DNA of 64,000 bases, from the NCBI RefSeq assembly GCF_003790525.1, contig NZ_CP033635.1; one strand, written 5' to 3'. Every line of letters starts with the position of its first letter. The stretch's first letter is position 1. A model generated the notes under the pieces. That model was given only the letters and a program-made list of their open reading frames with translations, was not told where the DNA came from and searched no databases. Source of the stretch: Escherichia coli. GTDB lineage: Bacteria > Pseudomonadota > Gammaproteobacteria > Enterobacterales > Enterobacteriaceae. Shown here piece by piece: positions 23,821 to 52,531 of the stretch. A program made the position numbers and the translations under genes.

Positions 23821-24046
23821 GATGAACAATAGCGTGAAAAAGAGTGCTTTTGAGAGATTTTTTATGGCAACTGCGCCGCGTGTATTACGTTTTTTACCAT
23901 CCCCGCCGCGCATGTACATACTTCATTTTTCTGCCAGACAACAGGGCAACTCCCCGTGACTGACAGCCCCAAAAAATCAATGATTGATGTTGCATTTTTG
24001 TTAAAGGTTAGACCAGTTGTTTTAGGGCTCTGCCTCATAATCCGGT

Positions 24047-24360
24047 GGGGGGTGCGCAAAGCGGTTACAACGGTTACAACACTCAAAAACACCACTTAAC
24101 AGCATGATTTTAATGGATATTGTTTGTAACCGCTTTGCGGTTACACTGCGGTTACAACGGTTACAGGTTTCAAAAAGCACTTTATTATCAATCAATTAAA
24201 AACTTAACCTGTAACCGCCTGTAACCTAACAAAACGGTTACATGTAACCGCGTTGTAACCGCTTTTATAACTCATCGGACCAGTTATAATATATTGATAT
24301 ATAATACAAAAATAAGTAATTTTAAATTTGTAACCGTTGTAACCGCTTTGCGCACCCCCC
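24047..24360. repeat. iteron field (candidate replication origin): 13 copies of GGTTACA/TGTAACC enclosed by 33-bp perfect inverted repeats, with an AT-rich tract
   Basis: The left arm ggggggtgcgcaaagcggttacaacggttacaa (24047-24079) is the exact reverse complement of 24328-24360. The heptamer occurs in both orientations throughout. The AT-rich stretch lies at about 24280-24327. Confidence 0.7.
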
Positions 24361-24611
24361 CCCAAACTTTAGCGCGACCCTTTAAAATGTTAATTAAACT
24401 CACTTACTCTGTATCTCTCTCGTTAACTCTCTGTTATTGAAATGTATCTCTCCACTGTTTCACTCTTTCTGATAATCAGGGGAAGCAAAAAATTGATGGC
24501 GGCACTACTGCAATATGGCCACCATTGCATTGCTGTTACCGTTGGTTCTGGCCAACAAAAAAGGTCAGCGGGAAACTGACCTCTTTTGCTGTGAATGCGG
24601 CGTTCTGCGGG

Positions 24612-25616: not shown

Positions 25617-25618
25617 GT

Positions 25619-28288
25619 TTAACTCCCCTCCTTGTAACTGAATATCCGGCATTTCAGTACTTCCGGCTCTCTGGCCTCGGCGACCCCTCTTCCGGCGTTT
25701 GCCTGTCTGGAGACCTCACTACGAATGGTTTTGCGGCCTGTCAAAGGTCGGGAACGTCCGGCTGCGAGCAACTCAATCATTTCGCGGTCAGTTCGGATCT
25801 CCACGCGGTGAATAGCGGCAGCCTGTGCCAGTTGCGGAATACTGATAGCAATCCCCTCGCGGCATCCCTTGCCGTAGTGGTTTACACCGTATTTTGTTAT
25901 GCCGTCCAGATAGTCGAACGCCTCCCAGAACGCTATTACTTCCGGCAAGTCATCCGTTACCGCTTTAACTTGTTCCGCTGCCATTCGTTCCAGTTCCTGG
26001 CATGTGGCATTAAGCCATTCATCCGGGATATCAATAACGCATTTCAGCGCCCTGACCAGCGCAATAAGTTGCGCGTGATTTTTGGCAATACGGGGATGGA
26101 GAATATTTTCGCAACCGCAAAGGCGGGTCGTTTCAGGCTCTGAGAGCGCCAGAAACATTTCCATAATTGCCCGTTCACGGCTGACTGCCCGATGAATAAA
26201 CCCTGACACCTTCTCAACGGGGTAGAGTTCCAGTCGTCTCGCCGCCAGCCGGGTATCAGACGAGTGGCGCTTTTTATCGGTATATATGCGAATCAGTCGC
26301 TCAATAATTGCAAGTGAGGCGTTTACCCTGGCATTCTGTGCAATCACGATAGCGCCCTTAAAATCCGGGTCATAGGTGTTGTTATTGTTGGTCTTAACGC
26401 CACGAACGCCGATACCGCCGCCGTTATAGAGGCTTTTCAGGTTATCGAAGTCAAACGCACCTCTTTTTTGCGCATTGCCTCCCCTGTCTGCTTCAATCAG
26501 AACAACAGGTAATCCGGCGACCTGTCCAAAGGTGCGCTTCCAGCCCGCCTCTGATCCTTTGGTTGGATCAACGCCTTCATAGTTGTCACGACCGCACAAC
26601 CGCCAGCAAAAATCAATCAATGTTGATTTACCCGTTCCGGGCTCCCCGGTGACTTCAAGGAAGGGGAAGGATTCTTCTTTATCCCGGATTTGTTCGCTGA
26701 ACAGGGAGCCCAACCAGAAAGCCAGGGTAATAATTCCTTTTTCACCAAAAGCCAGCCAGAGATCTTCCACCCAGGACTCTGTAAACTCATCCGGTTTTTT
26801 GTAGTTAATCTGTAATGTGGGTTTTTCGCTTAATGGTTTTGCGTTTATGCCATCAATTTCAAAATAATCTTCGTCATTGATTTCATAAGTTTTTCCCTTG
26901 TAAACAGCAATATCATTAAACAGCCATGCCCCAATCGCCTTGTTGTATCCGATAAAATCCTGACCAATAACCTCTTTTATTGCGGGAAGGTCATTTTTTA
27001 TTAATGCGTCAAGGTGCGCAGTTGTTCCGGTATAAATGCCGCCTTTTGCCACATGCAACAGGCGTTTTTTAAATTCAGATGCGGATGTCAATTGTCCTGA
27101 TGTAAAGGTGTTTTTCACCGTAGCACCATCCGGGAACGTAACACGGAAGTAATACCATGCTTCATCCGTGTCATTATTTCTAATGTAATAAAGCGGCGCT
27201 GGGTTACAGTTTGCGATTTCTTTTACTGCGCCAGATTCCTTAAGTGCAATTTTGCGCGCTTCATCCTCATCAACACTTCTCTCATTCTTGGCACGCTCTA
27301 CAGCTTTCATATAGCGCTCAATGTCCAGTTTGAACCAGAAAACACGGTTATCAAAAGTAAAATGAAATTCCTTCCGCTCACGAAAGGAAAATATTATTAG
27401 CGCCTTATCTCTCGGAGATTTCGCCAGCAATAAATCACCGTAATGACGGTATCTTTTCACATCATGGCCACGCAGCTTTCCGGCGATGTGTAAATCATTC
27501 CAGTCGCGTTTATTGTTGTTTTTACCTGGCAACGCCGCTGCCGTTCTCCAGCCGTCTTCGGCGCTGCGTTCTGCATGTTTTTTCGCGTAACGCTCACCCG
27601 CACGCCCGTTATCCAGCGCCCACACAATAACCGGACGGGGATTATCCCCGCACAGCTTCGCCAGCTCTTCCAGCGCCTTATCAGGGTAGTTCACGGCAGA
27701 CATGACAGAAACGGCCGCAATGCCATTCTGGTTAAGGCTGATGGCATCAAAGATGCCCTCACAAATCCAGATTTCTTTGGCCTTGCTTAAATCTGCTCCC
27801 GGATAAGCCCACCACAACCCCTTGTAGCTGCCGGAAAAATTCGCCTTGCGCGCGAAGCGTCCCGGTCGGTCTATGATGCGCTCCCACCACACGCCGTCAG
27901 CCAGCGTAAAACGCACAGTAGCGGCCTGTTCGCCGTTTTCCTTGTCCTGGTATCGCTCCTGAGTAAATGCGCCCTTCAGTGGCCCCACAGCAATATTGCG
28001 CGCCTCCTGAAGATAAGCTGCCACCGCTGCATATGGCTCGTCTTTCGTGCTGATATAACGATCTGACCATGATGAAAACACATCCGGGTAAAGTTCTTTG
28101 GTCAGCAGGTCTGTACCGCATTTATTTTCGCGCCCACAGTGTACGATGTACGGCCTTTCAAGGCTGGTAAACAACTCTTTCTTTCCACATTGCGGACAAA
28201 CACCATACCGGAGGTAGTTATTTTCTTCTTTGAAGTTGTAATCACGGATAAGACGGTTAATAATCTCTTTTCTGATGTCAGATTTCAT
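25619..28288 (-). CDS. P4 alpha-like primase-helicase (Zn finger, Toprim and SF3-type P-loop NTPase)
   Basis: The features are CPQCGKKELF...HCGRENKCG (zinc finger), WICEGIFDAISL (Toprim) and VTGEPGTGKST (Walker A). The start was chosen at MKSDIRKE (28288), which has a GGTGGAG RBS. Confidence 0.85.
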   Translation of the reverse strand: MKSDIRKEIINRLIRDYNFKEENNYLRYGVCPQCGKKELFTSLERPYIVHCGRENKCGTDLLTKELYPDVFSSWSDRYISTKDEPYAAVAAYLQEARNIAVGPLKGAFTQERYQDKENGEQAATVRFTLADGVWWERIIDRPGRFARKANFSGSYKGLWWAYPGADLSKAKEIWICEGIFDAISLNQNGIAAVSVMSAVNYPDKALEELAKLCGDNPRPVIVWALDNGRAGERYAKKHAERSAEDGWRTAAALPGKNNNKRDWNDLHIAGKLRGHDVKRYRHYGDLLLAKSPRDKALIIFSFRERKEFHFTFDNRVFWFKLDIERYMKAVERAKNERSVDEDEARKIALKESGAVKEIANCNPAPLYYIRNNDTDEAWYYFRVTFPDGATVKNTFTSGQLTSASEFKKRLLHVAKGGIYTGTTAHLDALIKNDLPAIKEVIGQDFIGYNKAIGAWLFNDIAVYKGKTYEINDEDYFEIDGINAKPLSEKPTLQINYKKPDEFTESWVEDLWLAFGEKGIITLAFWLGSLFSEQIRDKEESFPFLEVTGEPGTGKSTLIDFCWRLCGRDNYEGVDPTKGSEAGWKRTFGQVAGLPVVLIEADRGGNAQKRGAFDFDNLKSLYNGGGIGVRGVKTNNNNTYDPDFKGAIVIAQNARVNASLAIIERLIRIYTDKKRHSSDTRLAARRLELYPVEKVSGFIHRAVSRERAIMEMFLALSEPETTRLCGCENILHPRIAKNHAQLIALVRALKCVIDIPDEWLNATCQELERMAAEQVKAVTDDLPEVIAFWEAFDYLDGITKYGVNHYGKGCREGIAISIPQLAQAAAIHRVEIRTDREMIELLAAGRSRPLTGRKTIRSEVSRQANAGRGVAEAREPEVLKCRIFSYKEGS

Positions 28289-28336
28289 ATATAAAACTCC
28301 ACCCCACTGCACCTTTTGCCGTGGGGTTTTTATTAA

Positions 28337-28636
28337 TTACTCGTTACTTATTGCTTTGGCAATCCCGGCGGTTTCAGCACTATGCCATGAAAAAATTCCG
28401 CCAGAAGTATGCATTCCTGACTTAATCACTCGTAATTCCCGATAAAGAATGTTAGTTAATGATTCCATTTCATTAATTTGCACTGGCATTCTCTCACTGG
28501 TATTAATTTCACCTGTCAATGCTGAAATGAGCGCAATAACATTTATTACATCTTCAAGATTCTCAATGGAATCTTCCGTGAAAAAACCAGCGTATTCTTT
28601 TTTGTATATATTGCGGATATTCTGATTTTCAGACAT
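28337..28636 (-). CDS. hypothetical protein (satellite early operon)
   Basis: The 99-aa ORF has a GGGGAG RBS, is co-oriented with the operon, and was not recognised. Confidence 0.5.
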   Translation of the reverse strand: MSENQNIRNIYKKEYAGFFTEDSIENLEDVINVIALISALTGEINTSERMPVQINEMESLTNILYRELRVIKSGMHTSGGIFSWHSAETAGIAKAISNE

Positions 28637-28703
28637 AAAAACTCCCCGACCCGTTAAGATCGAAATATAAATTTAATTCAGTTATCAGTTGGTAATTCGG
28701 TAA

Positions 28704-28922
28704 TCAGTCGGAAAGCTGCGTCACCTTCAACGCTTTGAAATGTGTCATTCCCAGCTCTTCCAGCCCTTCGGCTGCGCGGCGTATGGCTTCGCCCGGTCCC
28801 GTTCCGTATACCGTTGCATGTGCATGTTTGGTTAACCCACGTTTATTAACGGCATAACCCAACACAAAGAAACGTTTTTCACCACTGCCATTATTTTTAC
28901 GGGATATTGAACGGCTTTTCAT
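28704..28922 (-). CDS. hypothetical protein (satellite early operon)
   Basis: The 72-aa ORF has an ATGA start/stop overlap with the upstream ORF. Confidence 0.5.
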   Translation of the reverse strand: MKSRSISRKNNGSGEKRFFVLGYAVNKRGLTKHAHATVYGTGPGEAIRRAAEGLEELGMTHFKALKVTQLSD

Positions 28923-29104
28923 TTCTTCACCCTTACCACTGATGCTGTGAGTTCTTCTGGCAATTGATATTTCGGCGCAATTTCTTCCGTATACCTGATA
29001 GCGTCCCTTGCCGCTTTTCCTTTTGATTTATATTTATATGTGGTGCGGTAGTTTTCTTCCTCTCCTGTTACCACATTACGCAATTTTATATGAATCTCGT
29101 ACAT
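28919..29104 (-). CDS. hypothetical protein (satellite early operon)
   Basis: The 61-aa ORF starts at MYEIHIKL. A GGAGGGG RBS is present, and the ATG lies 2 nt after the upstream stop. Confidence 0.5.
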   Translation of the reverse strand: MYEIHIKLRNVVTGEEENYRTTYKYKSKGKAARDAIRYTEEIAPKYQLPEELTASVVRVKK

Positions 29105-29106
29105 CG

Positions 29107-29289
29107 TTACCCCTCCATGATTTTTACTGCGCATTTGTGGGTTAATCGCCCCTGTTTGTCATTGCGGGAATATGCCATACGACAGGTATCACGCCATGCA
29201 TCGTCATAAGTCGGATATTCCCGGGAATGAATCATCTGGCGAACGTCGCCGTTCTGGTAGTTAATCAGGGTGATAAGGAGCTTAAACAT
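29107..29289 (-). CDS. hypothetical protein (satellite early operon)
   Basis: The 60-aa ORF starts at MFKLLITL. Its ATG overlaps the upstream stop (ATGTTTAA). The longer 145-aa ORF-track version was rejected. Confidence 0.45.
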   Translation of the reverse strand: MFKLLITLINYQNGDVRQMIHSREYPTYDDAWRDTCRMAYSRNDKQGRLTHKCAVKIMEG

Positions 29290-29809
29290 GGCACGCCTCC
29301 CGGACACGGATACGGGCAACAAAGACCAGACGGGATGCCGGAAGCAGGGCGCGCGCTTCGCGCTCACTGGCAGCGGTAACGGTATGAAGGCGGATATTTT
29401 TACCGTGGCACTGCATAAAGCGCCAGATAAAATCAGGGCGTGTTGATATAGCCATTTTGGCGGCTCCTTGATTAAGTTTACGGAGTCTCGCCAGCACGCT
29501 GTCAAACATGGTGGCGGGACGTAACAGGGTTGACAGACTGGCAATCAAGGAACCAGCGAGCGCAAAGGCTCCCCCATTACGCCCCGCCATAATACGGGGT
29601 AGGGTGGAATTACGGGCACAAAAAAACCGCATTACGGAAATATAGCGGCTACCCGCTTGATTGTTCAGGCTGTCAAACCCGGCACCCGCTTTATGAGGTG
29701 CGGGCAAACGATACGCCATGACAAAAAAGCGAGTCAAGCAATATTGCAAATTATTTTTGCGCAATTGCGCTGAGTGATTGATTTTTAAGAGTAAAAAAGT
29801 CATAATCAT
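29282..29809 (-). CDS. Ash-family / Icd-like (cell-division-inhibitor-like) protein, possibly a fusion or with a later start
   Basis: The middle segment (AGAGFDSLNNQAGSRYISVM...RIMAGRNGGAFALAGS) resembles Ash-family proteins of P4-like islands. The C-terminus (FIWRFMQCHGKNIRLHTVTAASEREARALLPASRLVFVARI) resembles Icd-like proteins. Confidence 0.55.
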   Translation of the reverse strand: MIMTFLLLKINHSAQLRKNNLQYCLTRFFVMAYRLPAPHKAGAGFDSLNNQAGSRYISVMRFFCARNSTLPRIMAGRNGGAFALAGSLIASLSTLLRPATMFDSVLARLRKLNQGAAKMAISTRPDFIWRFMQCHGKNIRLHTVTAASEREARALLPASRLVFVARIRVREACHV

Positions 29810-29815
29810 TTCTGC

Positions 29816-30067
29816 CTATTGTTTCTTATTGTTGATTTCAGGTGCACTAAATGCACATCCTTGACTGGTTGGCTCGCTGGCTTTAGCGAGCTTCTTTTTT
29901 GCTCTGCTGCCAATACCCGGCCTCCTTCCCTCACATGTAGTCATGTGCTCATTCCAGTCAGGTGGATAATGCTGTATTACCGGACATCCGGTTATGATGT
30001 TTAAAGCGTTTGTTTGTTTATGCCACGTGGAGAATATACCCCCACCGCCATTACTTGTATTTATCAT
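29816..30067 (-). CDS. hypothetical protein (first ORF after alpA)
   Basis: The 83-aa ORF ends 6 nt before the next start and was not recognised. Confidence 0.4.
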   Translation of the reverse strand: MINTSNGGGGIFSTWHKQTNALNIITGCPVIQHYPPDWNEHMTTCEGRRPGIGSRAKKKLAKASEPTSQGCAFSAPEINNKKQ

Positions 30068-30362
30068 AACAGTTCACCCAATTCGGTTAATGTAACCGGA
30101 ATAACTCAATTTCATACACTGTAAATAAATGCTGATTTTAAACTTAGCTCCTTGGAATATATTTCTTACGTGTGACGCACAGGTGAAAATATCCCTCTGA
30201 TAGTCCATTTTCTTTTATTTTGTCACATCTGTTTACTCCGGTTCCCTTAACAAGGGTAGAGCATCTTTTAAACCATGAATGCATCTTCGGTTAAGTGATG
30301 TTTCTTATTGTATGAAATATTTAGGCGCATATCGCGCCATGCTGACTATAAAATGAAAATAA

Positions 30363-30584
30363 TTAAGCCTGAAAACGTTGTTGTTTTCTTTCTTCTATCC
30401 AGTCGATAATTTCCTCTTCAACCCATGCAACCGCGCGAGGGCCTATTTTTATTGGTTTGGGGAATATATCAGATTTTATATCTTCGTAAATTCGAGCTCT
30501 TGATCTCCCTGTGATTTCAATGACTCTGGGGAGTCTTATTAATTTTTGAATCCGCCTTTCGCTGGTCTGTGAGTATGCTGACAT
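30363..30584 (-). CDS. alpA: AlpA/Vis-family phage transcriptional regulator or excisionase (MerR-like HTH)
   Basis: The 73-aa ORF contains LIRLPRVIEITGRSRARIYEDIKSDIFPKPIKIGPRAVAWVEEEIIDWI, the AlpA signature. Confidence 0.85.
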   Translation of the reverse strand: MSAYSQTSERRIQKLIRLPRVIEITGRSRARIYEDIKSDIFPKPIKIGPRAVAWVEEEIIDWIEERKQQRFQA

Positions 30585-30939
30585 ATTGGCCTCCTGTATA
30601 TGCTGACATTTTACGTTAGCTCACAGCGGGAGCATGTAAGATCTCGCGGTCGTCTGCGGGACGAGAAAAATCATAAACAACGAAAAGCGGATTTGTAAAT
30701 CAGGTCGATTTTCAGGCGGGGTTGACATGGACAGTGAGATTTGTTCCATGTGTGCAATATACATTTTAGGACCACTTTAAGCCACTTTAAACCGCCAGAA
30801 AGCGACAAAGAATAACAAGTTAGTGCCAGAAAGGTTTGCTGACTTACCCTTTTAGGTACCAGAAAAAGCCCTTTCAGGTCGGTGTAATGCTTGTGAACGC
30901 TGAAATAGTGGTTTCTGAAAACAAAAAAAGAATTGAAAA

Positions 30940-30955
30940 TGTGATAAATATCACA
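30940..30955. promoter_or_regulatory. perfect 16-bp palindrome TGTGATAAATATCACA (CRP-consensus half-sites with 6-bp spacer)
   Basis: aaaatgtgataaatatcacaaaat is read directly. It lies in the 610-bp non-coding region between int and alpA. Confidence 0.55.
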
Positions 30956-31112
30956 AAATAATATCGATAAAATAGTTTGATTTTTTTGTTTTTATTAAAA
31001 GCACTGGTTAATTGTAAAAAATTAATTATAAATCAAATGGATATATCTGTTTTTTTAGGGTAAAAATCACTAGGTGCTTTTAGCAGTATCTTATTCTATT
31101 GATTTTAAAAGA

Positions 31113-31147
31113 TAAAAAAATCGGCGTGTCCACATATTGTCCACGCC
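31113..31147 (-). terminator. rho-independent terminator of the island integrase, with two GTGGACA direct repeats in the hairpin
   Basis: On the minus strand, ggcgtg-gacaatatgtgga-cacgcc is followed by gattttttt, about 48 nt after the int stop. Confidence 0.65.
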
Positions 31148-31194
31148 TTGAGTTTAATTCAGCCGCTTGGGATAGTTTAGTTTGTTGAGTTGAT

Positions 31195-32457
31195 TCAGTC
31201 TGTTTCGTTAGTCCATTTAAAATCATAGGGGGAAATATATGCCGCCTTGCAGGTGTCGAGATAATCAGCCCACCATTGCAACATTCGGCGGCGTTCCTGC
31301 ATATGTTCAGCTCTGTGAACGTATGCAGCCCGGACACTGCCTCTTTCCCTGTGACTCATCTGAAGCTCAACGGCTTCTCTTGTCCACCTGCCTGACTCTG
31401 TCAGCGCCGAACAGGCCATGGTCCTGAATCCGTGACCACAAATATCTTTTTTTGTGTCGTATCCCATGTGGCGTAATGCCTTGTTAATGGTGTTTTCGCT
31501 CATTGGTTTTATCTGGTAATGGTCGCTGGGGAAAATAAACACTTCATCACCGGATATATTTCTTATATCGTCAAGAAGCTGCATGGCCTGAGTGGGTAAA
31601 GGGATGGCGTGAGGGGTTCCCATTTTCGTTCCACGATATGAATATTTTACGCCTTCTATTTTTTCGCGTTCTGCTGGTATTACCCACATTGATTTATCAA
31701 AGTCAATTTCATTCCAACGAGCAAAACGCAATTCACTTGAGCGAATAAAAATTAATAAATTTAATTTTAGTGCAAATTGCGTTAATAACCGTCCATTCAT
31801 CTTATGGTGGTAATCATTTATTTTGCCAAGTAATTCAGGTAATCGCTCAAGGGGAAGAGCGGGGCGATGTTTGGTTTTATTAGTTTCGATTGCACCGTTC
31901 AGTTCCTGCGCTGGATTGTATTTAATCATTCCATTCTGTACAGCGTAGCGCATAATGGCGTTCATTCGCTGCTTGTTACGTGATGCTGTCTCAAGCACTC
32001 CTTTGTCTTCCATTTTGCGTAAAGGAATCAGTAGATCCATGGTTGTGATCTCGTTAATTGGCCTTTTACCAAGAATGGGGAAGATGTGGTTTTCCAGGTC
32101 TTTTAAGACTTTTTGCGCGTGCAATTCGCTCCAGCCCTTTTTCCGGCTGTGCCATTCTCTGGCAACGTCTTCAAAAAGCACTATTTGAGGTTTTGGTGTG
32201 TGCAGTGGGTCAATGCCTTTAGCCAGGCTCGCCAGATATTCATCACGAGCGTTCCTTGCCTGTGCAAGTGTTACGGCAGGATAAATGCCTAAAGCTCGGG
32301 TCGTTTCTTTACCGTTGATAACCTTGCGAAAGCGCCAGTATTTTGAGCCGTTGGGGTGAACATAGAGATACAGGCCTTTCCCGTCACGAAGTTTTTTAAT
32401 TTTATTGTTGTCCTTATCTGGTTTGGCGTTACGTACAGCTATATCAGTCAGTTTCAT
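31195..32457 (-). CDS. P4-type (DUF4102 N-terminal arm-binding domain) tyrosine integrase
   Basis: The ORF has MKLTDIAVRNAKPDKD...GKGLYLYVHPNGSKYWRFR, and C-terminal HGFRTMA and Y in VRAAYVHRAEH. The start at 32457 has a GGAGGA RBS. The gene lies directly downstream of, and co-oriented with, tRNA-Arg. Confidence 0.9.
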   Translation of the reverse strand: MKLTDIAVRNAKPDKDNNKIKKLRDGKGLYLYVHPNGSKYWRFRKVINGKETTRALGIYPAVTLAQARNARDEYLASLAKGIDPLHTPKPQIVLFEDVAREWHSRKKGWSELHAQKVLKDLENHIFPILGKRPINEITTMDLLIPLRKMEDKGVLETASRNKQRMNAIMRYAVQNGMIKYNPAQELNGAIETNKTKHRPALPLERLPELLGKINDYHHKMNGRLLTQFALKLNLLIFIRSSELRFARWNEIDFDKSMWVIPAEREKIEGVKYSYRGTKMGTPHAIPLPTQAMQLLDDIRNISGDEVFIFPSDHYQIKPMSENTINKALRHMGYDTKKDICGHGFRTMACSALTESGRWTREAVELQMSHRERGSVRAAYVHRAEHMQERRRMLQWWADYLDTCKAAYISPYDFKWTNETD

Positions 32458-32635
32458 TATGTTGATCCTCCAGACGGGTACAAATAAAAATCGAACCAAG
32501 CATACCCGCTTTTATACCCATTTTAATATGGGCTTCAGGCAAATTTAACGAGAGAAAATGAGACAATGGGAGATGTTTAACTCATTGAAAGTAAATGGAT
32601 AATGGTTTTTTCTGAGAGGTTGCAAGAAGTTGCGA

Positions 32636-32710
32636 TGGTGTCCCCTGCAGGAATCGAACCTGCAATTAGCCCTTAGGAGGGGCTCGTTATATCCATTTAA
32701 CTAAGAGGAC
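32636..32710 (-). tRNA. argW: tRNA-Arg (anticodon CCU)
   Basis: The reverse complement reads GTCCTCTTAGTTAAATGGATATAACGAGCCCCTCCTAAGGGCTAATTGCAGGTTCGATTCCTGCAGGGGACACCA. It forms a cloverleaf with a CCT anticodon in CTCCTAAGG and an encoded CCA end. Confidence 0.93.
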
Positions 32711-43446: not shown

Positions 43447-44013
43447 ATGAGTAAGTTTGCCAAAACAGCCATTGCTGCGGCGATGGTCATGGGCGCAGTT
43501 GTTTCCAGTTCTGCATTTGCAGCAGGCAACAACGGTACCGCGCGCTTCTACGGCACCATTGAAGACTCCCCGTGCTCTATCGTTCCAGACGATCACAAAC
43601 TGGAAGTCGATATGGGTGACATCGGTGCGGCTAAACTGACCGGCGGTGGCACCACCACACCGAAAGATTTCCAGATCCGTTTACAGGACTGCGTGTTTTC
43701 CACTGAAACAAACATGGAGACCACGTTCACCGGTACTAACTACGCGGGGCCAGCCAACACAGATAACTATGCGTTATTCAACGTTGACAGCGGTGTTGCC
43801 ATGAAGAATGTGAGCCTGGTGATCGGCGATACCCATGGCAAAGGTTATAAAGTGGGCGAAAAGATTGTTCAGCCAATCGTGATGGATGCTTCAACCAGCA
43901 AAGGTAAAGACAAGCAAACGCTGAACTTTAAAGCCTGGCTGGTGGGTGAAACCGAAGCGCCGGATCTCGGCCAGTTCGAAACCCTGACCACATTCCAGAT
44001 TACCTATCTCTGA
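43447..44013 (+). CDS. yfcV: chaperone-usher fimbrial major subunit
   Basis: The 188-aa ORF has a signal peptide and the fimbrillin C-terminal strand TFQITYL. It is preceded by a 570-bp AT-rich region. Confidence 0.85.
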   Translation: MSKFAKTAIAAAMVMGAVVSSSAFAAGNNGTARFYGTIEDSPCSIVPDDHKLEVDMGDIGAAKLTGGGTTTPKDFQIRLQDCVFSTETNMETTFTGTNYAGPANTDNYALFNVDSGVAMKNVSLVIGDTHGKGYKVGEKIVQPIVMDASTSKGKDKQTLNFKAWLVGETEAPDLGQFETLTTFQITYL

Positions 44014-44020
44014 TGTGACA

Positions 44021-44049
44021 ACCCCACAGCGTTCTGCTGTGGGGTTTTT
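44021..44049 (+). terminator. intra-operon attenuator/terminator hairpin after the major subunit gene
   Basis: The hairpin ccccacagc-gttct-gctgtgggg is followed by ttttt. Confidence 0.75.
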
Positions 44050-44087
44050 CAACACGCAACAGATTTACGACTGTTTCACAAACGGAT

Positions 44088-46742
44088 ATGTGTATGCCTA
44101 ATCACTCAAATTTTCGGCTGCGGGGAATCGCCTGCTATATTGCGCTGGCAATCTCAGGTGGATCAGTCAATGCATGGGCTGATGATTCCATTCAATTTGA
44201 CCCCCGTTTCCTTGAGTTAAAGGGCGACACGAAAATTGATCTCGGTAAGTTTTCAAAAAAAGGGTATGTCGACGCGGGAAAATATAATTTACGTGTATTT
44301 ATAAATAAACAACCCCTTTCTGATGAATACGACATTAACTGGTATGTTTCTGAAAACGATCCAACAAAAACGTATGCCTGCCTGACACCTGAGTTAGTGG
44401 CGGCGCTGGGGCTGAAAGAAGGGATAGCAAAAAGCCTGCAGTGGACGCACAACGATGAATGCCTTAAACCGGGGCAATTAGATGGGATGGAAGTCGAGAA
44501 TGATTTAAGCCAGTCGGCGTTGCTGCTGACAGTGCCACAGGCTTATCTCGAATATACCAGCAGCGACTGGGACCCACCCTCACGCTGGGACGACGGTATT
44601 CCTGGCCTGATTGCCGACTACAGCCTCAATGCGCAAACCCGCCACCAGGAGCAGGGTGGCGAGGACTCACATGATATCAGCGGCAACGGTACCGTTGGGG
44701 CGAACCTGGGGGCATGGCGTTTCCGCGCAGACTGGCAAAGTGATTATCAGCACACCCGCAGCAACGATGACGACGATGACAGCAGTAACAGTACAACGAG
44801 CAAAAACTGGGACTGGAGCCGTTATTACGCCTGGCGGGCCTTACCCTCTTTAAAAGCGAAGCTGTCGCTGGGGGAAGATTATCTCAATTCCGATATTTTC
44901 GACGGCTTTAACTATATTGGCAGCAGCGTCAGCACCGATGACCAGATGCTGCCGCCCAACCTGCGCGGCTATGCGCCGGATGTCTCCGGCGTGGCGCACA
45001 GCAGTGCAAAAGTCACCATTAGCCAGATGGGCCGGGTACTTTACGAAACCCAGGTTCCCGCCGGGCCATTCCGCATTCAGGATATCGGCGACTCCGTCTC
45101 CGGCACACTGCACGTCCGCGTTGAAGAACAGAATGGTCAGGTGCAGGAATATGACGTTACGACCGCATCTATGCCATTCCTCACGCGCCAGGGGCAGGTG
45201 CGTTACAAAGTGATGATGGGGCGTCCGGAAGACTGGAACCACAAGACCGAAGGCGGCTTTTTCTCCGGCGGAGAAGCGTCATGGGGGGTGGCAGATGGCT
45301 GGTCGCTCTACGGTGGCGCGCTGGCAGATGAACACTACCAGTCGGCGGCGATGGGGGTGGGGCGCGACCTCGCACAGTTTGGCGCGCTGGCGTTCGATGT
45401 GACTCACTCGCACGTCAACCTGGATCATGACAGCGCATACGGCAAAGGAAAACTGGACGGCAACTCCTTTCGCGTGAGCTATGCCAAAGACTTTGACGAA
45501 CTCAACAGCCGCGTCACCTTTGCAGGCTACCGTTTTTCTGAAAAGAACTTCATGACCATGAGCGAGTATCTGGACGCGAACCAGTCGGACATGGCGCGGA
45601 CCGGTAACGACAAAGAGATGTATACGATCACCTATAACCAGAACTTTGCCGCTGCGGGTGTCTCGATCTATCTCAACTACTCCCATCGTACTTACTGGGA
45701 TCGCCCGGAACAGACAAACTATAACCTGATGTTTTCCCACTATTTTAATATGGGGAGCATTCGCAACGTGAGCATCTCGGTGACCGGCTATCGCTACGAA
45801 TATGACGATAACGCGGATAAGGGGATGTACCTCAGCATGAGCATTCCGTGGAGCGACAGCAGCACCGTGACCTACAACGGTTCCTACGGCAGCGGGTCGG
45901 ACAGCAGCCAGGTCGGTTACTTTAAGCGCGTTGATGACGCAACGCACTACCAGGTTAACGTCGGTACCAGCGAACAGCACGGCAGCGTGGATGGTTATCT
46001 GAGTCACGACGGCTCGCTGGCGAAGGTTGATCTCAGCGCCAACTACCATGAGGGGGAATACCGCTCGGCGGGGATCGCCTTACAGGGCGGGGCAACGCTG
46101 ACCGCGCATGGTGGGGCGCTGCATCGCACTCAAAGCATGGGCGGTACGCGCCTGCTGATTGACGCCGACGGGATTGCCAATGTGCCGGTCGAAAGCAACG
46201 GCGCGCCGGTGTACACCAATATGTTTGGCAAGGCGGTGGTCGCCGATATTAACAACTACTATCGCAATCAGGCGTATATCGATTTAAACAACCTGCCAGA
46301 AGATGCGGAAGCCACCCAGTCGGTGGTACAGGCAACCCTGACGGAAGGTGCAATTGGCTATCGCAAATTCAAAGTGATCAGCGGGCAAAAAGCGATGGCG
46401 GTACTGCGGTTGCGTGACGGCAGCTACCCGCCGTTTGGCGCGGAAGTGAAAAACGACGAGCAGCAGCAGGTTGGCATTGTGGATGATGAAGGCAATGTCT
46501 ATCTGGCGGGAGTCAATGCGGGTGAGCATATGACGGTGTTCTGGGAAGGCAGCGCACAATGCGAGATCGTATTGCCGAAGCCGCTACCTGCCGATCTGTT
46601 CAGCGGCCTGTTGTTGCCGTGTGAACAAAAGGGAACGGCAGCCCCTGATTCTTCAGCGCCAGAAATTAAGCCTGTTATTCAGGACCAGACGCGGCAAGTC
46701 ACACCAACGGAAGCGCCGACGTCAATTTCAGCTACTCAATAA
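44088..46742 (+). CDS. yfcU: fimbrial outer-membrane usher (apparently intact)
   Basis: The 884-aa ORF is uninterrupted and matches the usher family in size and position. Confidence 0.85.
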   Translation: MCMPNHSNFRLRGIACYIALAISGGSVNAWADDSIQFDPRFLELKGDTKIDLGKFSKKGYVDAGKYNLRVFINKQPLSDEYDINWYVSENDPTKTYACLTPELVAALGLKEGIAKSLQWTHNDECLKPGQLDGMEVENDLSQSALLLTVPQAYLEYTSSDWDPPSRWDDGIPGLIADYSLNAQTRHQEQGGEDSHDISGNGTVGANLGAWRFRADWQSDYQHTRSNDDDDDSSNSTTSKNWDWSRYYAWRALPSLKAKLSLGEDYLNSDIFDGFNYIGSSVSTDDQMLPPNLRGYAPDVSGVAHSSAKVTISQMGRVLYETQVPAGPFRIQDIGDSVSGTLHVRVEEQNGQVQEYDVTTASMPFLTRQGQVRYKVMMGRPEDWNHKTEGGFFSGGEASWGVADGWSLYGGALADEHYQSAAMGVGRDLAQFGALAFDVTHSHVNLDHDSAYGKGKLDGNSFRVSYAKDFDELNSRVTFAGYRFSEKNFMTMSEYLDANQSDMARTGNDKEMYTITYNQNFAAAGVSIYLNYSHRTYWDRPEQTNYNLMFSHYFNMGSIRNVSISVTGYRYEYDDNADKGMYLSMSIPWSDSSTVTYNGSYGSGSDSSQVGYFKRVDDATHYQVNVGTSEQHGSVDGYLSHDGSLAKVDLSANYHEGEYRSAGIALQGGATLTAHGGALHRTQSMGGTRLLIDADGIANVPVESNGAPVYTNMFGKAVVADINNYYRNQAYIDLNNLPEDAEATQSVVQATLTEGAIGYRKFKVISGQKAMAVLRLRDGSYPPFGAEVKNDEQQQVGIVDDEGNVYLAGVNAGEHMTVFWEGSAQCEIVLPKPLPADLFSGLLLPCEQKGTAAPDSSAPEIKPVIQDQTRQVTPTEAPTSISATQ

Positions 46743-46761
46743 TCTGATTAAGGAACGATCA

Positions 46762-47514
46762 ATGTCTTATAAATTATCCAGTTCAATGGTCGTCAGCACG
46801 GCGCTGGCGGCACTGCTTTCCACCGTCAGCCTGGCGGCGCACGCCTCGGTCACCCCGGACCGCACCCGTCTGGTGTTTAACGAAAGCGATAAATCGATCA
46901 GCGTGACGTTGCGTAACAACAACGAAAAGCTGCCTTACCTGGCGCAAAGCTGGCTGGAAGACGAGAAGGGCAACAAAATCACCTCGCCGCTGGCGGTACT
47001 GCCGCCGGTGCAGCGTATTGACGCCATGATGAACGGCCAGGTGAAGATTCAGGCGCTGCCGGACATTCACACGCTGCCATCTGACCGTGAAAGCCTGTTC
47101 TACTACAACGTGCGTGAGATCCCGCCAAAGACCGGGAAAGCCAACACCCTGCAAATTGCCCTGCAAACGCGCATCAAGCTGTTCTGGCGACCAAAGGCGC
47201 TGGAGAAGATTGACATGAGAAAACCGTGGCAGTTTAAGGTGACGCTCACGCGCAGCGGCCAGGACTATACCGTCAATAACCCGACGCCATACCACGTCAT
47301 CATCAGCGATGCCAGCACACAGAAGAAAGGGCCGACCGCAGCCGGGTTTAAACCGCTGGTGATGTCGCCGAAAACGTCACAGCCGTTAAAGGCAAAAATG
47401 GACAGCGCCCCGGTGCTGACCTACATCAACGACTACGGCGCGCGCCTGCCGCTGATCTTCCGCTGTGAAGGGGACACCTGCAAGGTGGATGAAGATCAAA
47501 GCAGCAAAGGCTGA
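46762..47514 (+). CDS. yfcS: periplasmic fimbrial chaperone (PapD-like)
   Basis: The start at MSYKLSSSMVV has an AAGGAA RBS. The ORF contains the motifs RLVFNESDKSISVTLRN and LFYYNVREIPP. Confidence 0.85.
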   Translation: MSYKLSSSMVVSTALAALLSTVSLAAHASVTPDRTRLVFNESDKSISVTLRNNNEKLPYLAQSWLEDEKGNKITSPLAVLPPVQRIDAMMNGQVKIQALPDIHTLPSDRESLFYYNVREIPPKTGKANTLQIALQTRIKLFWRPKALEKIDMRKPWQFKVTLTRSGQDYTVNNPTPYHVIISDASTQKKGPTAAGFKPLVMSPKTSQPLKAKMDSAPVLTYINDYGARLPLIFRCEGDTCKVDEDQSSKG

Positions 47515-47530
47515 TAACGGGAGAGCCAGG

Positions 47531-48022
47531 ATGAAAGGATCGTGGGCGTGGTTGCTGGTGGGCTGCATCGGTAGTTGCTCCGTGACGGCAGGGAGCAAAT
47601 CGGTGGATATGATTTTACGGGTGCTTGTTGATGCTCCGCCTCCTTGTACGGTAACGGGCGCGGAGGTGGAGTTCGGTAATGTTGTCATTACCAGAATTGG
47701 TGGCGTGAATTATAAGCGCCCCATTGATTACAAGCTTGTCTGTAACAACCTGGCCATGGATGACCTGCGTCTACAGATGCAGGCGGCAACGGTCGTGATT
47801 AACGGTGAAACGGTGATCAGCACGGGGATTCCTGGGTTTGGTATTCGGATTCAGAAGGCCAGCGATAGTTCGATACTCGACTTAACGTCTGGCGCATGGC
47901 TGCCGTTTAATTTCTCCTCGGGCGCACCAGCGCTGGAAGCGGTTCCGGTGAAACAGAGCGGCACGTCGTTAACGGCGGCGGAATTTAGCGCCAGCGCCAC
48001 CATTGTGGTGGATTACCAATGA
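47531..48022 (+). CDS. yfcR: fimbrial minor subunit
   Basis: The 163-aa ORF starts at an internal ATG, has a signal peptide, and has the C-terminal strand ATIVVDYQ. Confidence 0.75.
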   Translation: MKGSWAWLLVGCIGSCSVTAGSKSVDMILRVLVDAPPPCTVTGAEVEFGNVVITRIGGVNYKRPIDYKLVCNNLAMDDLRLQMQAATVVINGETVISTGIPGFGIRIQKASDSSILDLTSGAWLPFNFSSGAPALEAVPVKQSGTSLTAAEFSASATIVVDYQ

Positions 48023-48489
48023 AACGGATCTCACTTCTTATGCTGTGGGGCTTTTGCTCCATGGCGCTCTCAAATGTCACTTTTCACGGTTATTTAGTGC
48101 AGCCGCCTAACTGCACCATTAGCGACGGTGAAACCATTGAATTAACCTTTCAGGACGTGAATATCGACGACATTAACGGCAGTAATTATGAGCAAATCGT
48201 GCCGTATCGCATTACTTGCGATACACCGGTTCGTGACCCTTTACTGGAAATGACCTTGAGCTGGAGCGGCACGCAGAGCGACTTTGACGATGCGGCGGTA
48301 AGCACGGACATCGCAGGCCTGGGGATTCGGCTTAAACAGGCAGGGCAGAGCTTTAAGCTGAATACGCCACTGGTGGTGGATGAAACGGCTTTGCCGGCGT
48401 TAACGGCGGTACCGGTCAAAAAGAGCGGCGTCGATTTGCCTGAGGCCAACTTTGAAGCCTGGGCTACGTTACAGGTGGATTACCAATGA
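48019..48489 (+). CDS. yfcQ: fimbrial minor subunit
   Basis: The 156-aa ORF has the C-terminus ATLQVDYQ and overlaps the upstream stop. Confidence 0.75.
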   Translation: MKRISLLMLWGFCSMALSNVTFHGYLVQPPNCTISDGETIELTFQDVNIDDINGSNYEQIVPYRITCDTPVRDPLLEMTLSWSGTQSDFDDAAVSTDIAGLGIRLKQAGQSFKLNTPLVVDETALPALTAVPVKKSGVDLPEANFEAWATLQVDYQ

Positions 48490-49010
48490 CGAAAAAACAT
48501 GCGTTGGTTTTTATCAGCAGTCTGCTGTTACTGTGCAGCAGTACTGCTCCGGCGGTCGACAACCTGCACTTCACCGGCAATCTGCTCGGTAAATCCTGTA
48601 CACCGGTGATCAACGGTAGTCTGCTGGCGGAGGTGCAATTTCCTACCATTGCCGCCAGCGATTTAATGCATCTTGGGCAGTCAGATCGAGTGCCGCTGGT
48701 CTTTCAGTTGAAGGATTGCAAAAGCTCTACGCTGTTTAGCGTCAGAGTGACGCTGGCGGGAACGGAAGACAGCGAACTGCCCGGATTTCTGGCTATAGAC
48801 GCCTCATCGTCAGCGTCCGGGGTCGGGATTGGTATTGAAACGGCGGCGGGCGCAGCGGTGCCTATCAACGACACGACGGGCGTGACGTTCCCGCTGAATC
48901 AGGGCAGTAACACTCTCAACTTCAATGCCTGGTTACAGACAAAAAGTGGGCGGGATGTGACGCCCGGTGATTTCAGCGCCACGGCGACGGCAACCTTTGA
49001 GTATTTTTAA
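48486..49010 (+). CDS. yfcP: fimbrial minor subunit
   Basis: The 174-aa ORF has a signal peptide and the C-terminus ATATFEYF. Confidence 0.75.
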   Translation: MTKKHALVFISSLLLLCSSTAPAVDNLHFTGNLLGKSCTPVINGSLLAEVQFPTIAASDLMHLGQSDRVPLVFQLKDCKSSTLFSVRVTLAGTEDSELPGFLAIDASSSASGVGIGIETAAGAAVPINDTTGVTFPLNQGSNTLNFNAWLQTKSGRDVTPGDFSATATATFEYF

Positions 49011-49011
49011 G

Positions 49012-49851
49012 ATGAAAAAATGGATGATGTTTTTCGCGAGCCTGATATTGCTCGTAATGAGTGTAGGTACGCCAAAGAGTTATGCCAGGGATAAACTCAC
49101 CAGCGCAACTTTTGATAGTGTGAAAATTTACTATGGGATGGGGAGAGCAGGTTTCACCACAGGAGCCTTACATGTCACTGTGTTAACCCCAGGCGAGGTT
49201 GCCTATGGGGTATACAATACTACCGGGTATATAGGCACTGACGCGAGGGTCGTTTCATGGACGGGGTCTGGCCCTGCGCCAACGTTGACTCTTGTTGACT
49301 ATAGTAGCACTGATAACTCGTTTTGCCCTGGGATAAATACGACGCTGTTTCGATGCGCATATGAGACATTTAAAGTTACCGTTCAATCTGACAATTATGG
49401 CTGTCCGTGGATCGCCTCTTTTTATGAGGTATCAGATCAACATGCATATGGAATATATACTGGCCCAACGGATCATGCTACGGCATGCCCAACGATTCCG
49501 GTGACTTCATTTGATATTTCGTGGAATGAGAATTATGTCAGCCATAGTAAAGCGTTGCAGTTACAGTCCAATGGCTCGACCATCACCACCACGCTTTCGA
49601 CCTACCTGATGCAAGACGGCAAACTCTGTGATGGCAGCGTTTTTGATAACAGAGGAGCATACTGCCGCGTGGTCTCGGAACTGTTAACCTTTACCTCTTA
49701 CGGTTGCGATAAATCGACAGTAACGGTTTCCCCTACACGTCATCCAGTAACGGATAAACAACTGCACGATATTGTGGTGAAGGTGAATACCAGTAGCCGA
49801 CAACCGATTGATTCTACGTGTCGTTTTCAGTATGTATTGAATGAATTGTAG
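49012..49851 (+). CDS. yfcO: fimbrial tip protein / putative adhesin
   Basis: The 279-aa ORF starts at MKKWMMFFASLILL, is Cys-rich, and is the last gene of the operon. Confidence 0.7.
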   Translation: MKKWMMFFASLILLVMSVGTPKSYARDKLTSATFDSVKIYYGMGRAGFTTGALHVTVLTPGEVAYGVYNTTGYIGTDARVVSWTGSGPAPTLTLVDYSSTDNSFCPGINTTLFRCAYETFKVTVQSDNYGCPWIASFYEVSDQHAYGIYTGPTDHATACPTIPVTSFDISWNENYVSHSKALQLQSNGSTITTTLSTYLMQDGKLCDGSVFDNRGAYCRVVSELLTFTSYGCDKSTVTVSPTRHPVTDKQLHDIVVKVNTSSRQPIDSTCRFQYVLNEL

Positions 49852-49861: not shown

Positions 49862-49888
49862 ACGGATGGTCGGGTATCGGCCATCCGT
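49862..49888. terminator. hairpin between convergent yfcO and the HNH gene
   Basis: The hairpin is acggatgg-tcgggtatcgg-ccatccgt. Confidence 0.45.
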
Positions 49889-49892
49889 TATG

Positions 49893-50552
49893 TCATGCGG
49901 TCATCCAGTTTTTTAGAATATTCGCCACCACGGGAGCGAAAGGTGCCAGATAACCGTCGACGGGGGTGAGTAATTCGTCGATAACCGCTTGCAGCAGGTC
50001 GTCATCCTCAAGCCCCTCTGAAGGGTCAATGCCATTAGCCCACAGAAGGCTGTCGGAAAGCTGCTTACGTTTTTCAATCAATGCCCGATTATTACGTTCA
50101 CTATCGCCAAGGTTGAGTACCTTAATCGCATCGATAGCTCTCGGCGTCGTCCCTTCAATTCGACCACTGATCTTGAAGATAAACTCGGTTTCACATTCCG
50201 GCATAAGCGGCGTTAACAGCAATGGCTGGTTCTTATGCGAGTCGTCACACTGGCCTTTTGTTTTGCAGCTTGCAACGATATTCGTGAATTCCAGACTGCG
50301 AGCAGGAGCTAAATCCCTGGCTTCGACATGTTCATTAACGGTATCGCGGTTTGTACCTGTCACGCGATCGCAGCAATAAGCACAGAGATAAAATTGCTCC
50401 TGAGCGCACTGCTGGCTGAGATCGCCAACGATATCCCATTTTTTTTGCGCATAAAGTTCCTGAAACCACTGATTGGCATTTTTATCCCGTGGTTTTGCTC
50501 TCACCCACTGTTGCAAACTGGCCGGCGGTTGCCCTTTAGTTATTTCGCGCAT
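49893..50552 (-). CDS. ptuB: HNH-type nuclease, TIGR02646-like (Septu PtuB-like)
   Basis: The 219-aa ORF contains FYLCAYCCDRV...NEHVEARD...ASCKTKGQCDDSHKN, with HNH/Cys-cluster spacing. It overlaps the upstream ATPase gene by 17 nt. Confidence 0.7.
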   Translation of the reverse strand: MREITKGQPPASLQQWVRAKPRDKNANQWFQELYAQKKWDIVGDLSQQCAQEQFYLCAYCCDRVTGTNRDTVNEHVEARDLAPARSLEFTNIVASCKTKGQCDDSHKNQPLLLTPLMPECETEFIFKISGRIEGTTPRAIDAIKVLNLGDSERNNRALIEKRKQLSDSLLWANGIDPSEGLEDDDLLQAVIDELLTPVDGYLAPFAPVVANILKNWMTA

Positions 50553-51894
50553 GTTTAATTTCCTGTTTGCGCAGAAGCATTCTGGCTTTCACCAGTTCAA
50601 GATGGTTTTCAGGAAGTTCCAGGCTTAGCGTATTCAGAAGAGCGTTAGCGTTGATAAAGTCGTTTTTCTGAATCAGATCCAAAAGATCGTTAAGTTTTTC
50701 TGCCACTGTCGCATTGCGAATATCCGTATCCATCACATTCAAAAGCACAGTATTCGCATCTTGCCCATACAGAGACGGGAGCTGCGTTAATTCGCCATTA
50801 TCCAGAGAATAAACCAGCACATCTTTGTAATCACTGATCACTAAAGGAGAGTGGGTTGTTAAGACAAACTGGCAATGTGGGAATGTTGTCGTCAGACGCT
50901 GGATGATTGTACGCTGCCATGTTGGATGCAGGTGCATGTCCACTTCATCAATTAATACAATTCCCTCGCCGTTTAGCGGGTTTTCTAACATCGGGTTCAT
51001 CATTGCCAGGCGGCGAGCAATATCGCCGACTAACGCCATCAGTGATTTTTCACCCTGCGATAATTGCAGCACATTCAGTGTCTGGCCATTTTTATCAATC
51101 GACATATGCAGGCGAGGTTTACGCCTGACGCGTAAGTTGCTGAACCCTGGCATAAAGCGACTAATGGCCGTTCTGACGGCGGTCAACTGGCGATCCCGGG
51201 ACGAGGCCATGATTGCCGTTAATGCATTTAAGACGGTGTTATCGAGATCTATCCTGGTACTGAGCTTATCCAGAACGTCTTGGGGTAAGCCCGATTCATT
51301 TTCTGCATCTTCGCGATTGCGAAACCACTCAAAGAAACGGCGGAAATCAATACCCTGATTCAGGGCGTTATCGTAGCCATCCAGTTGCAAAAAATTATGA
51401 CGTTCTTTTATTTTCAACGGCACATCCAGCACGACACGTTCTACGGGATAGAAGGCGATAAGCGGGAAGGATGCCCCGCTATTCTGGGTGTATTGATCTC
51501 GATAAAACGCAGCCAATTGGCTGGCCTCTTGCAGGCTGGAGGCGGTGGTCGATTTTTTCCCACTGGCCGTTCTGGCAAGCAACCAACGGTAGGGCGTAGC
51601 GGCCTCCGTCGCTGGATGCGTATTCAGTACCTGAAGTTCAATTGTCGCCGAACTCCTACCGTTCAGAATAGCGTCTTCAGGAATAGGGCTACCGTTACCT
51701 TTTTCAGTACGAACTCGGGCAACGAACCAACTCAGGCTGGTTGCCAACGATTTTAATATTGATGTTTTACCTGCACCATTATTACCAATAAAAACGGTCA
51801 CATTGCTCTTGAACTCCTCCACTGGAGCCAGATGAACTTCAAGTTCTTCAAACCGCCCCAGATTAGTGAGCTTAAGCGTGCGGATATTCATCAT
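50536..51894 (-). CDS. ptuA: AAA_15/AAA_21 ABC-type ATPase (Septu PtuA-like)
   Basis: The 452-aa ORF has Walker A GNNGAGKTS and Walker B/D-loop LIDEVDMHLHP. It also has LSQGEKSLMAL (signature-like) and VLTTHSPLV (H-loop). Confidence 0.75.
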   Translation of the reverse strand: MMNIRTLKLTNLGRFEELEVHLAPVEEFKSNVTVFIGNNGAGKTSILKSLATSLSWFVARVRTEKGNGSPIPEDAILNGRSSATIELQVLNTHPATEAATPYRWLLARTASGKKSTTASSLQEASQLAAFYRDQYTQNSGASFPLIAFYPVERVVLDVPLKIKERHNFLQLDGYDNALNQGIDFRRFFEWFRNREDAENESGLPQDVLDKLSTRIDLDNTVLNALTAIMASSRDRQLTAVRTAISRFMPGFSNLRVRRKPRLHMSIDKNGQTLNVLQLSQGEKSLMALVGDIARRLAMMNPMLENPLNGEGIVLIDEVDMHLHPTWQRTIIQRLTTTFPHCQFVLTTHSPLVISDYKDVLVYSLDNGELTQLPSLYGQDANTVLLNVMDTDIRNATVAEKLNDLLDLIQKNDFINANALLNTLSLELPENHLELVKARMLLRKQEIKHARNN

Positions 51895-51979
51895 TGAGTG
51901 CCCTGCGTTGAGTTCTGTTTGGATAATCTTACACTTAACCGTCGACGTCTGTCAGTGAAAGCGTATGCCCGTCATGATG

Positions 51980-52531
51980 TCAGGGCAATTCCGGCGGCAG
52001 CCACTCATCCACTTCTATCAACACCAGCAATGCCGCATCACCACCGTACTCTTTCGGTGCCTGATGAAATGCCATTACATGGGGATGTTGCGCCAGCCAC
52101 AGTGGCGTTTGCTGCTTCAAAATATGCTTACCATGACCATGCATCACACAGGCGCAAAACACATGTTCGCGGCGACAGGCGGCAATCAATGCGCCTAACT
52201 CCTGCTTGGCTTGCAGCTGCGTCAAACCGTGCAAATCCAAAAACAGCTCCGGTGAATAATCACCGCGCCGCAGTTTCTTCGCTTCAAAATGGCTGACATC
52301 CGGGCGAACATATTTCACCGGACCTTCGGTATTTAATAATGGTTGAAACTCATCGGAGAAATAATGGCTGGCATCGGCCTGCTCCTGAATCAACCGCTTG
52401 ACCGGCACTTCGCTGATTTTTTTACGCTGCGGTCGGTGGACAATCGTGTCCTGCTTAATCTTGCGAGTCCCCGCCATCAACTGGCGAAACAGCGCCTGGT
52501 CCTCCTCGCTAAGTGTTGTTTTCTTTTTCAT
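51980..52531 (-). CDS. smrB: ribosome-rescue endonuclease SmrB (Smr domain)
   Basis: The 183-aa ORF begins [29 protein letters not shown] and contains LDLHGLT. Confidence 0.93.

Follow-up and report, generated by a model that had tools for sequence, protein, structure and literature searches.

What is the pair of genes that separates the core gene smrB from the yfc fimbrial operon in a chromosome of Escherichia coli, and does it form a complete defence system by itself? The locus is located in a stretch of 64,000 nucleotides of contig NZ_CP033635.1 (assembly GCF_003790525.1; this whole stretch is called the window below), in which an initial annotation, made from the sequence alone, had proposed a Septu system composed of an ATPase (PtuA) and an HNH nuclease (PtuB). 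Our analysis indicates that the pair is very probably a stand-alone Septu operon (type I), intact and fixed in the chromosome, and an allele of Septu Ec^B88. The system is already known, a ~99% identical allele from the same locus having been cloned and characterised. The same open reading frames (ORFs) as in the initial annotation were found, an ATPase of 452 amino acids (aa) overlapping by 17 nt a protein of 219 aa:

ptuA: 50536-51894, minus strand, ORF of 452 aa, ABC/SMC-type ATPase
ptuB: 49893-50552, minus strand, ORF of 219 aa, HNH (beta-beta-alpha-Me) nuclease
ptuA/ptuB overlap (3' end of ptuA, start of ptuB): 50536-50552, minus strand, 17 nt

Both coding sequences (CDS) are also present in RefSeq for genomes identical in this region, annotated as 'AAA family ATPase' and as 'HNH endonuclease family protein' or 'hypothetical protein'. 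The accession numbers of the window alleles are WP_000981121.1 and WP_001206999.1.

PtuA matches the PADLOC PtuA model PDLC00271 (1.8e-168) over residues 2-450, and PtuB matches the PADLOC PtuB model PDLC00344 (5e-95) over residues 1-218. The proposed Septu architecture was thus recovered with full-length PtuA and PtuB and with no other ATPase family, an ABC/SMC-type PtuA and an HNH PtuB being encoded by an adjacent, co-oriented two-gene operon. In Pfam, PtuA displays matches above the cut-offs with AAA_21, AAA_23, AAA_15 and SMC_N. Its characteristic motifs are the Walker A from Gly37 to Thr44 (including Lys43), the signature LSQGEK (residues 278-283), the Walker B LIDEVD (residues 314-319, including Asp316) and the H-loop TTHSP (residues 346-350), all of which are invariant among 14 aligned homologs. 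Two other families were considered for PtuA and rejected. Concerning OLD/Gabija, the Toprim domain of GajA was not detected in the Pfam scan, and the partner of PtuA is an HNH protein, neither a Toprim protein nor a helicase; among the PADLOC matches listed, 24 of 25 are PtuA models and one is a retron I-A ATPase model, with no OLD/Gabija model, and the sole match with an OLD structure is marginal (1.9e-4 over 42 residues at the Walker B). Concerning the restriction-associated ATPases, the match with TIGR04435 is weak (46 bits for a cut-off of 300).

PtuB gave no match in the Pfam scan, and a search of the PDB with the single sequence found nothing; matches with structures were obtained only from a profile of 16 sequences. 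This profile detects the HNH endonuclease of Ec83 (9e8z_E, 5.7e-12), the stand-alone Septu PtuB 8ee7_C (3.8e-6) and the chain 9n69_F, named 'TIGR02646 family protein'. In the mutant chain 9o4a_C of Ec83, the histidine that has been replaced aligns with His75. Among 16 aligned homologs, the residues His75, Asn91 and Cys 57, 60, 61, 96, 102 and 120 are invariant. The description of the small protein as Cys-rich is in agreement with its seven Cys in 219 aa, six of them invariant in the family, whereas its assignment to the TIGR02646 type (retron system putative HNH endonuclease subfamily) stands only in part: judged by its score, PtuB is homologous to this subfamily but sub-threshold (42.3 bits, E-value 7.3e-11, for a curated cut-off of 52.15). 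The NCBIfam retron-Ec78 equivalogs are also matched below their cut-offs, with scores of 352 for PtuA (cut-off 500) and of 93 for PtuB (cut-off 150; E-value 1.8e-26).

Septu Ec^B88 originates from E. coli JBBDAGI-19-0041 (PtuA WP_000981116.1, PtuB WP_016243072.1; PMC13096335, Nat Commun 2026;17:3468) and was cloned as a fragment of 2598 bp, the sequences being those of Supplementary Data 8 (PMC13096335). As in the window, the pair is localized directly downstream of smrB, encodes proteins of 452 and 219 aa and has an equal overlap. The fragment starts within the smrB 3' end, continues with the same 85-bp spacer and then enters ptuA; 395 of 399 nt are identical to window positions 52190-51792, and one base change, at 51923, falls just past the putative -10 element. 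The PtuB proteins are identical at 218 of 219 positions (V198I). For PtuA, the comparison spans 399 of the 452 residues, the last 53 aa lying outside it, and 395 of these 399 are identical (T220A, I228L, Y356C, N366D). The five substitutions are conservative and all occur at family-variable columns, where the residue of the window is found in other members too.

In the host DH10B, a p15A plasmid with Ec^B88 under its native promoter confers a 10-100-fold protection against the Demerecviridae phages Bas26-34; T4 is affected too, protection against T6 is intermediate and there is none against T2 (PMC13096335). Defence is lost with the substitutions K43A and D316A in PtuA and H75A and N91A in PtuB (PMC13096335), four residues that are all present in the window pair. 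Upon infection, tRNA-Tyr is cut at C48/A49 of its variable loop; the phage is rescued by additional tRNA-Tyr, and T6 escapes because SegB drives the amplification of the tRNA-Tyr gene that this phage carries (PMC13096335). The phage-panel challenge with Walker A and HNH mutants that the initial annotation had proposed as a test is therefore already published for this ~99% identical allele, with protection observed and the mutants inactive. No other paper mentioning the four protein accessions was found in a literature search.

The relationship of the pair to retrons is the next part of the question. The effectors of the type I-A retrons (Retron-Eco7/Ec78 and Ec83; PDB 9kjx, 9e8z and further entries) are an ATPase and an HNH protein homologous to the window pair, and the reported target of retron I-A PtuAB is tRNA-Tyr, as for Ec^B88. 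Among the solved structures, PtuA matches Ec83 (5e-63, 217 bits), Ec78 (~1e-47, 166 bits) and the Septu of ATCC 25922 (3.5e-32, 115 bits), and is consequently closer to the tRNA-Tyr-targeting retron proteins than to the PtuA of ATCC 25922. Unlike the type I-A retrons, however, the window pair is accompanied by no reverse transcriptase (RT) and no msr/msd, and its PtuA of 452 aa is 90-100 aa shorter than the retron PtuAs (542-552 aa). It aligns only from their residue ~60-70, and an internal stretch of ~27-29 residues in the retron proteins has no counterpart. In the retron complexes, PtuA's N-terminal extension contacts the RT and the non-coding RNA (ncRNA) and a helical flap is wrapped around the multicopy single-stranded DNA (msDNA), whereas the stand-alone PtuA has neither (PMC12819146). 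The gaps of the window PtuA match the position of the N-terminal extension and possibly that of the helical flap (PMC12819146). From the alignment, the retron-binding N-terminal extension is clearly missing in the window PtuA; the flap would be absent as well, as inferred solely from the unmatched stretch of ~27-29 aa.

The annotation of the identical genome segment lists no RT, and with Rfam nothing matched near the pair, even at E<=1; over the whole window, Rfam detected only one tRNA and two small RNAs, ~20 kb away. The single interval upstream of ptuA is the following:

Spacer from the smrB stop to the ptuA start: 51895-51979, minus strand, 85 nt, unstructured (minimum free energy -10.3 kcal/mol, z=+1.56)

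By its length and its predicted folding, this spacer is too short and too unstructured for a retron msr/msd. The locus thus has no RT or msr/msd upstream and no N-terminal extension of PtuA, and is not a type I-A retron; the claim that the pair is stand-alone rather than a retron-Septu is upheld by these three absences. The Septu of ATCC 25922 (PDB 8EE4/8EE7) resembles the window in being a two-gene ptuA-ptuB system with no retron and with a PtuA devoid of N-terminal extension, but its sequence is far more distant (115 bits for PtuA; 3.8e-6 with the PtuB profile). According to the citations of Li et al. 2024 in PMC12819146 and PMC13096335, this system is characterised by an ATP-inhibited DNA nicking, performed by a hexameric assembly of PtuA, and not by a cleavage of tRNA-Tyr.

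The variable segment that contains the pair is delimited by two genes:

smrB: 51980-52531, minus strand, core gene for a ribosome-rescue endonuclease, directly upstream of ptuA and co-oriented, right edge of the variable segment
yfcO-family fimbrial adhesin gene: 49012-49851, plus strand, last gene of the yfc operon, convergent with ptuB, left edge of the variable segment

The yfcO-to-ptuB spacer measures 41 bp and the smrB-to-ptuA spacer 85 bp (ORF coordinates), the values given by the initial annotation, and its statement that K-12 has no genes here is correct, since the smrB-yfcO spacer of MG1655 is only 70 bp long and contains a hairpin and no gene. The G+C content over ptuA-ptuB is 0.44-0.50, a mild drop in comparison with ~0.51-0.58 in most flanking windows. 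The absence of mobility genes and repeats was likewise confirmed: neither an integrase nor a transposase is found among the housekeeping genes flanking the pair, the closest integrase being ~17 kb off in an unrelated P4-like island, and the repeat scan of the flanks gave no meaningful direct or inverted repeats but short matches only. The best candidate, a repeat of 21 nt with 81% identity and an exact core of 12 nt (49951-49971/51936-51956), was judged to be due to chance (a 2.4-kb sequence should contain ~0.17 of these 12-mers at random) and coincides with no deletion junction.

The history of the locus was examined in 5426 complete E. coli genomes with a segment of 2128 bp as reference. At least 80% of this segment is present in 183 genomes, 136 of which possess the ptuA/ptuB junction segment and thus the full-length pair. 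In the other 47, a deletion of 198 bp (window ~50513-50710), flanked by CCACTGTnGCA microhomologies, has removed the 3' end of ptuA together with the beginning of ptuB. For one strain with this deletion, CREC-544, RefSeq still calls two CDS (404 and 207 aa) that overlap and are probably non-functional. A remnant of 234 bp of the ptuB 3' end (window 49884-50117) persists alone in 475 genomes, for example in uropathogenic E. coli (UPEC) 536 and in strains labelled as sequence type (ST) 95 or ST1193. In the UPEC 536 type, the remnant is followed by ~49 bp matching nothing in the window locus and then by the smrB stop. All other genomes have no trace of the pair. The intact form is therefore found in ~2.5% of the complete genomes and degraded forms in ~10%, and all the E. 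coli copies are chromosomal.

In the alignment of the window with K-12, UPEC 536 and CREC-544, the whole segment from the yfcO stop to the smrB stop differs, and the similarity ends exactly at both stops. No target-site duplication was detected in this four-strain alignment. The junction comparison suggested initially was thus carried out across strains but yielded no insertion scar. The pair is not simply a fresh insertion: the locus is polymorphic, and the decayed copies (47 and 475) outnumber the full-length copies (136). The pair is found with at least two yfcO alleles, that of the window and that of CREC-544, which points to recombination between ptuB and yfcO. Homologous recombination of the core DNA on either side would most simply account for the spread of the pair within E. 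coli. The smrB-yfcO junction was also considered as a hotspot for several cargos, an idea that was rejected: the other sampled classes have spacers of 59-170 bp and divergent yfc alleles, with no cargo. The yfc operon (window 43447-49851) is highly allelic among E. coli lineages, with a divergence that starts exactly at the smrB stop codon. In the clinical strain p11B, smrB is split by an insertion of IS1A, so that smrB is dispensable in that strain.

Two signals were identified in the spacers on either side of the pair:

Sigma-70 promoter-like site: 51926-51955, minus strand, CTGACA-18 nt-TAAGAT, 9/12 match, within the smrB-ptuA spacer
Hairpin in the spacer of the convergent genes yfcO and ptuB: 49862-49888, no strand assigned, inverted repeat (-15 kcal/mol on the minus strand, -19 kcal/mol on the plus strand; z -4.4, -3.4)

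The promoter-like site is suggestive only, and sigma-70-like sites are not enriched in the region. The upstream flank of the Ec^B88 clone is only 300 bp long (the 85-bp spacer and 215 nt of smrB). The prediction of a promoter within or just after the smrB 3' end is consistent both with the -35/-10-like site of the spacer and with the activity of this clone from its native promoter. No terminator-like site was found between smrB and ptuA by terminator scan and folding, and a read-through from smrB into ptuA is therefore possible. The hairpin is probably a bidirectional terminator, and the 17-nt overlap of ptuA and ptuB probably corresponds to a translational coupling.

Outside E. coli, PtuA has thousands of homologs, the nearest of which have at most 75% identity, except for one protein with 90% identity carried by a contig of 2.3 kb. 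We analysed 85 loci from other genera with 58-75% identity. A co-oriented ptuB follows ptuA in 82 of them, usually with an overlap (17 nt in L007, L008, L011, L012 and L017; 14 nt in L009, L013 and L020); no ptuB match was detected in L037, L040 and L067. Neighbouring genes were counted in the 50 loci having at least 4 kb on both flanks, and the only recurring neighbours are components of type I restriction-modification (R-M) systems. The order hsdM-hsdS-ptuA-ptuB-hsdR is observed in 12 of these 50 loci and three more adjoin hsdMS. In the R-M-embedded relatives, ptuA often overlaps hsdS by 11 nt and hsdR begins ~43 nt past ptuB; a gene for a YgjP-like metallopeptidase is common after hsdR. Copies on Enterobacter plasmids (59% identity) also adjoin an R-M S subunit, and in the collections searched no plasmid or phage carrier exceeds 69% identity. 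A Klebsiella locus (L011) has an integrase and genes of a cyclic-oligonucleotide-based antiphage signalling system (CBASS) nearby. The search for an RT near the 85 relatives (YxDD/FxDD motif, then Pfam) found none, the candidates being flavoproteins, a luciferase-like monooxygenase, SfsA and similar proteins.

The anticodon nuclease PrrC, a latent tRNA nuclease, is embedded between hsdS and hsdR. The Septu pair would resemble PrrC as a latent tRNA nuclease, but Ec^B88 works without R-M. No hsd genes flank the E. coli pair, which is consequently not a type I R-M-embedded cassette, and no hsd remnants were detected in the 85- and 41-bp spacers of the window (best score 26 for a shuffled-null maximum of 25). 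Defence genes lying between hsdS and hsdR have been described before, for example DarTG2 (PMC12255303).

These results are best explained by an intact stand-alone Septu operon functioning as Ec^B88. The promoter of ptuA-ptuB would lie within the 85-bp spacer or the smrB 3' end, possibly with smrB read-through in addition, and ptuB translation would probably be coupled through the overlap. By homology with the solved Septu and retron PtuAB, the PtuA ATPase may oligomerise and keep the PtuB nuclease in a latent complex, which infection by T5-like (Demerecviridae) or T-even phages would activate and for which Lys43, Asp316, His75 and Asn91 would be needed, as was shown experimentally for the ~99% identical allele. 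The pair would have come to its site without a recognisable mobile element and would now be in the course of loss by deletion in many lineages. Some points weigh against this explanation. For the phage trigger of Ec^B88, a tail-sheath candidate has been excluded (PMC13096335); the phenotypes come from an allele that differs at the five positions listed above; and the promoter assignment is a weak consensus match. Moreover, the ATCC 25922 Septu is reported to nick DNA, so that the cleavage of tRNA-Tyr may be due to PtuB directly or may be a downstream effect. This last point leads to a Septu whose primary activity would be an ATP-gated, non-specific nicking or degradation of DNA, as in the PtuA6-PtuB2 of ATCC 25922, with an indirect loss of tRNA-Tyr. 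PtuB has indeed the fold of an HNH DNA nuclease and its profile matches the ATCC 25922 PtuB (8ee7_C), and PtuAB nicks DNA in vitro, the stand-alone form being inhibited by ATP (PMC12819146). We nevertheless consider this explanation unlikely, given the site-specific cleavage of the tRNA-Tyr variable loop observed with Ec^B88 in vivo and the rescue of the phage by extra tRNA-Tyr (PMC13096335), to which is added the proximity of the window PtuA to the retron proteins (217 and 166 bits, against 115 bits).

The frequency of decay at the locus and the existence of truncated PtuA variants in the databases (P0005-P0007, P0019) raise the possibility of a silent or decaying relic in the source strain, for which the chance is slim: both ORFs are full-length, no catalytic or invariant residue is lost, the substitutions relative to the active allele fall at variable positions, and the upstream region is identical to the active clone at 395 of 399 nt. 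Still less probable is an effector that needs a partner encoded elsewhere, be it the RT/msDNA of a retron or a type I R-M complex. Among the solved structures, the nearest PtuAs are effectors of retrons I-A, and 15 of the 50 well-flanked relatives are in or adjoin type I R-M operons, but the window PtuA is devoid of N-terminal extension, the relatives have no RT nearby and the E. coli copy has neither hsd genes nor remnants beside it. To our knowledge DH10B has no retrons, and this strain carries the mrr-hsdRMS-mcrBC deletion. Ec^B88 alone on a plasmid is active in this host (PMC13096335), and such a dependence is largely refuted by this heterologous activity. It is also very improbable that the placement after smrB is itself functional, with co-transcription coupling Septu and SmrB into a stronger translational shut-off. 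According to this idea, the loss of tRNA-Tyr would make ribosomes stall and collide at Tyr codons, and collided ribosomes are the substrate of SmrB. K-12 has a terminator hairpin after smrB, and the window has none between smrB and ptuA. The test host DH10B has its own smrB, and the linkage with smrB is found in E. coli only, the relatives being elsewhere in type I R-M operons or in unrelated sites.

Two other islands were observed in the window. The P4-like satellite or integrative island of ~12.7 kb (~19967-32634) is localized beside a tRNA-Arg (32639-32710, minus strand). It comprises an integrase (31195-32499), the C4 antisense RNA and isrK (29507-29701), a Toprim primase-like protein of 897 aa (25619-28312), a second tyrosine recombinase (24612-25652), a P2-family major-capsid-like protein of 470 aa (20820-22232) and a PemK/MazF-like toxin (20432-20776); for eight of its ORFs, PADLOC found no match. 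Strain 165, which is otherwise 99.99% identical, lacks this island, and at least 80% of it is present in only 19 of the 5426 E. coli genomes. The second island (~8100-19900; 20796-32197 in strain 165), upstream of the tRNA-Arg site, contains the tyrosine-type invertases ipuA/ipuB and the phase-variable autotransporter adhesin UpaE.

Concerning the Septu pair, the discovery value is little: DefenseFinder/PADLOC would flag it, and the phage range, the mutants, the tRNA-Tyr target and the escape are already published. The small added value is the population and evolutionary context, namely the core-gene site, the counts of intact and degraded copies and the clade embedded in R-M operons. Being related to the retron I-A effectors but naturally free of a retron, the pair is useful for asking how PtuAB stays latent and is triggered without msDNA.

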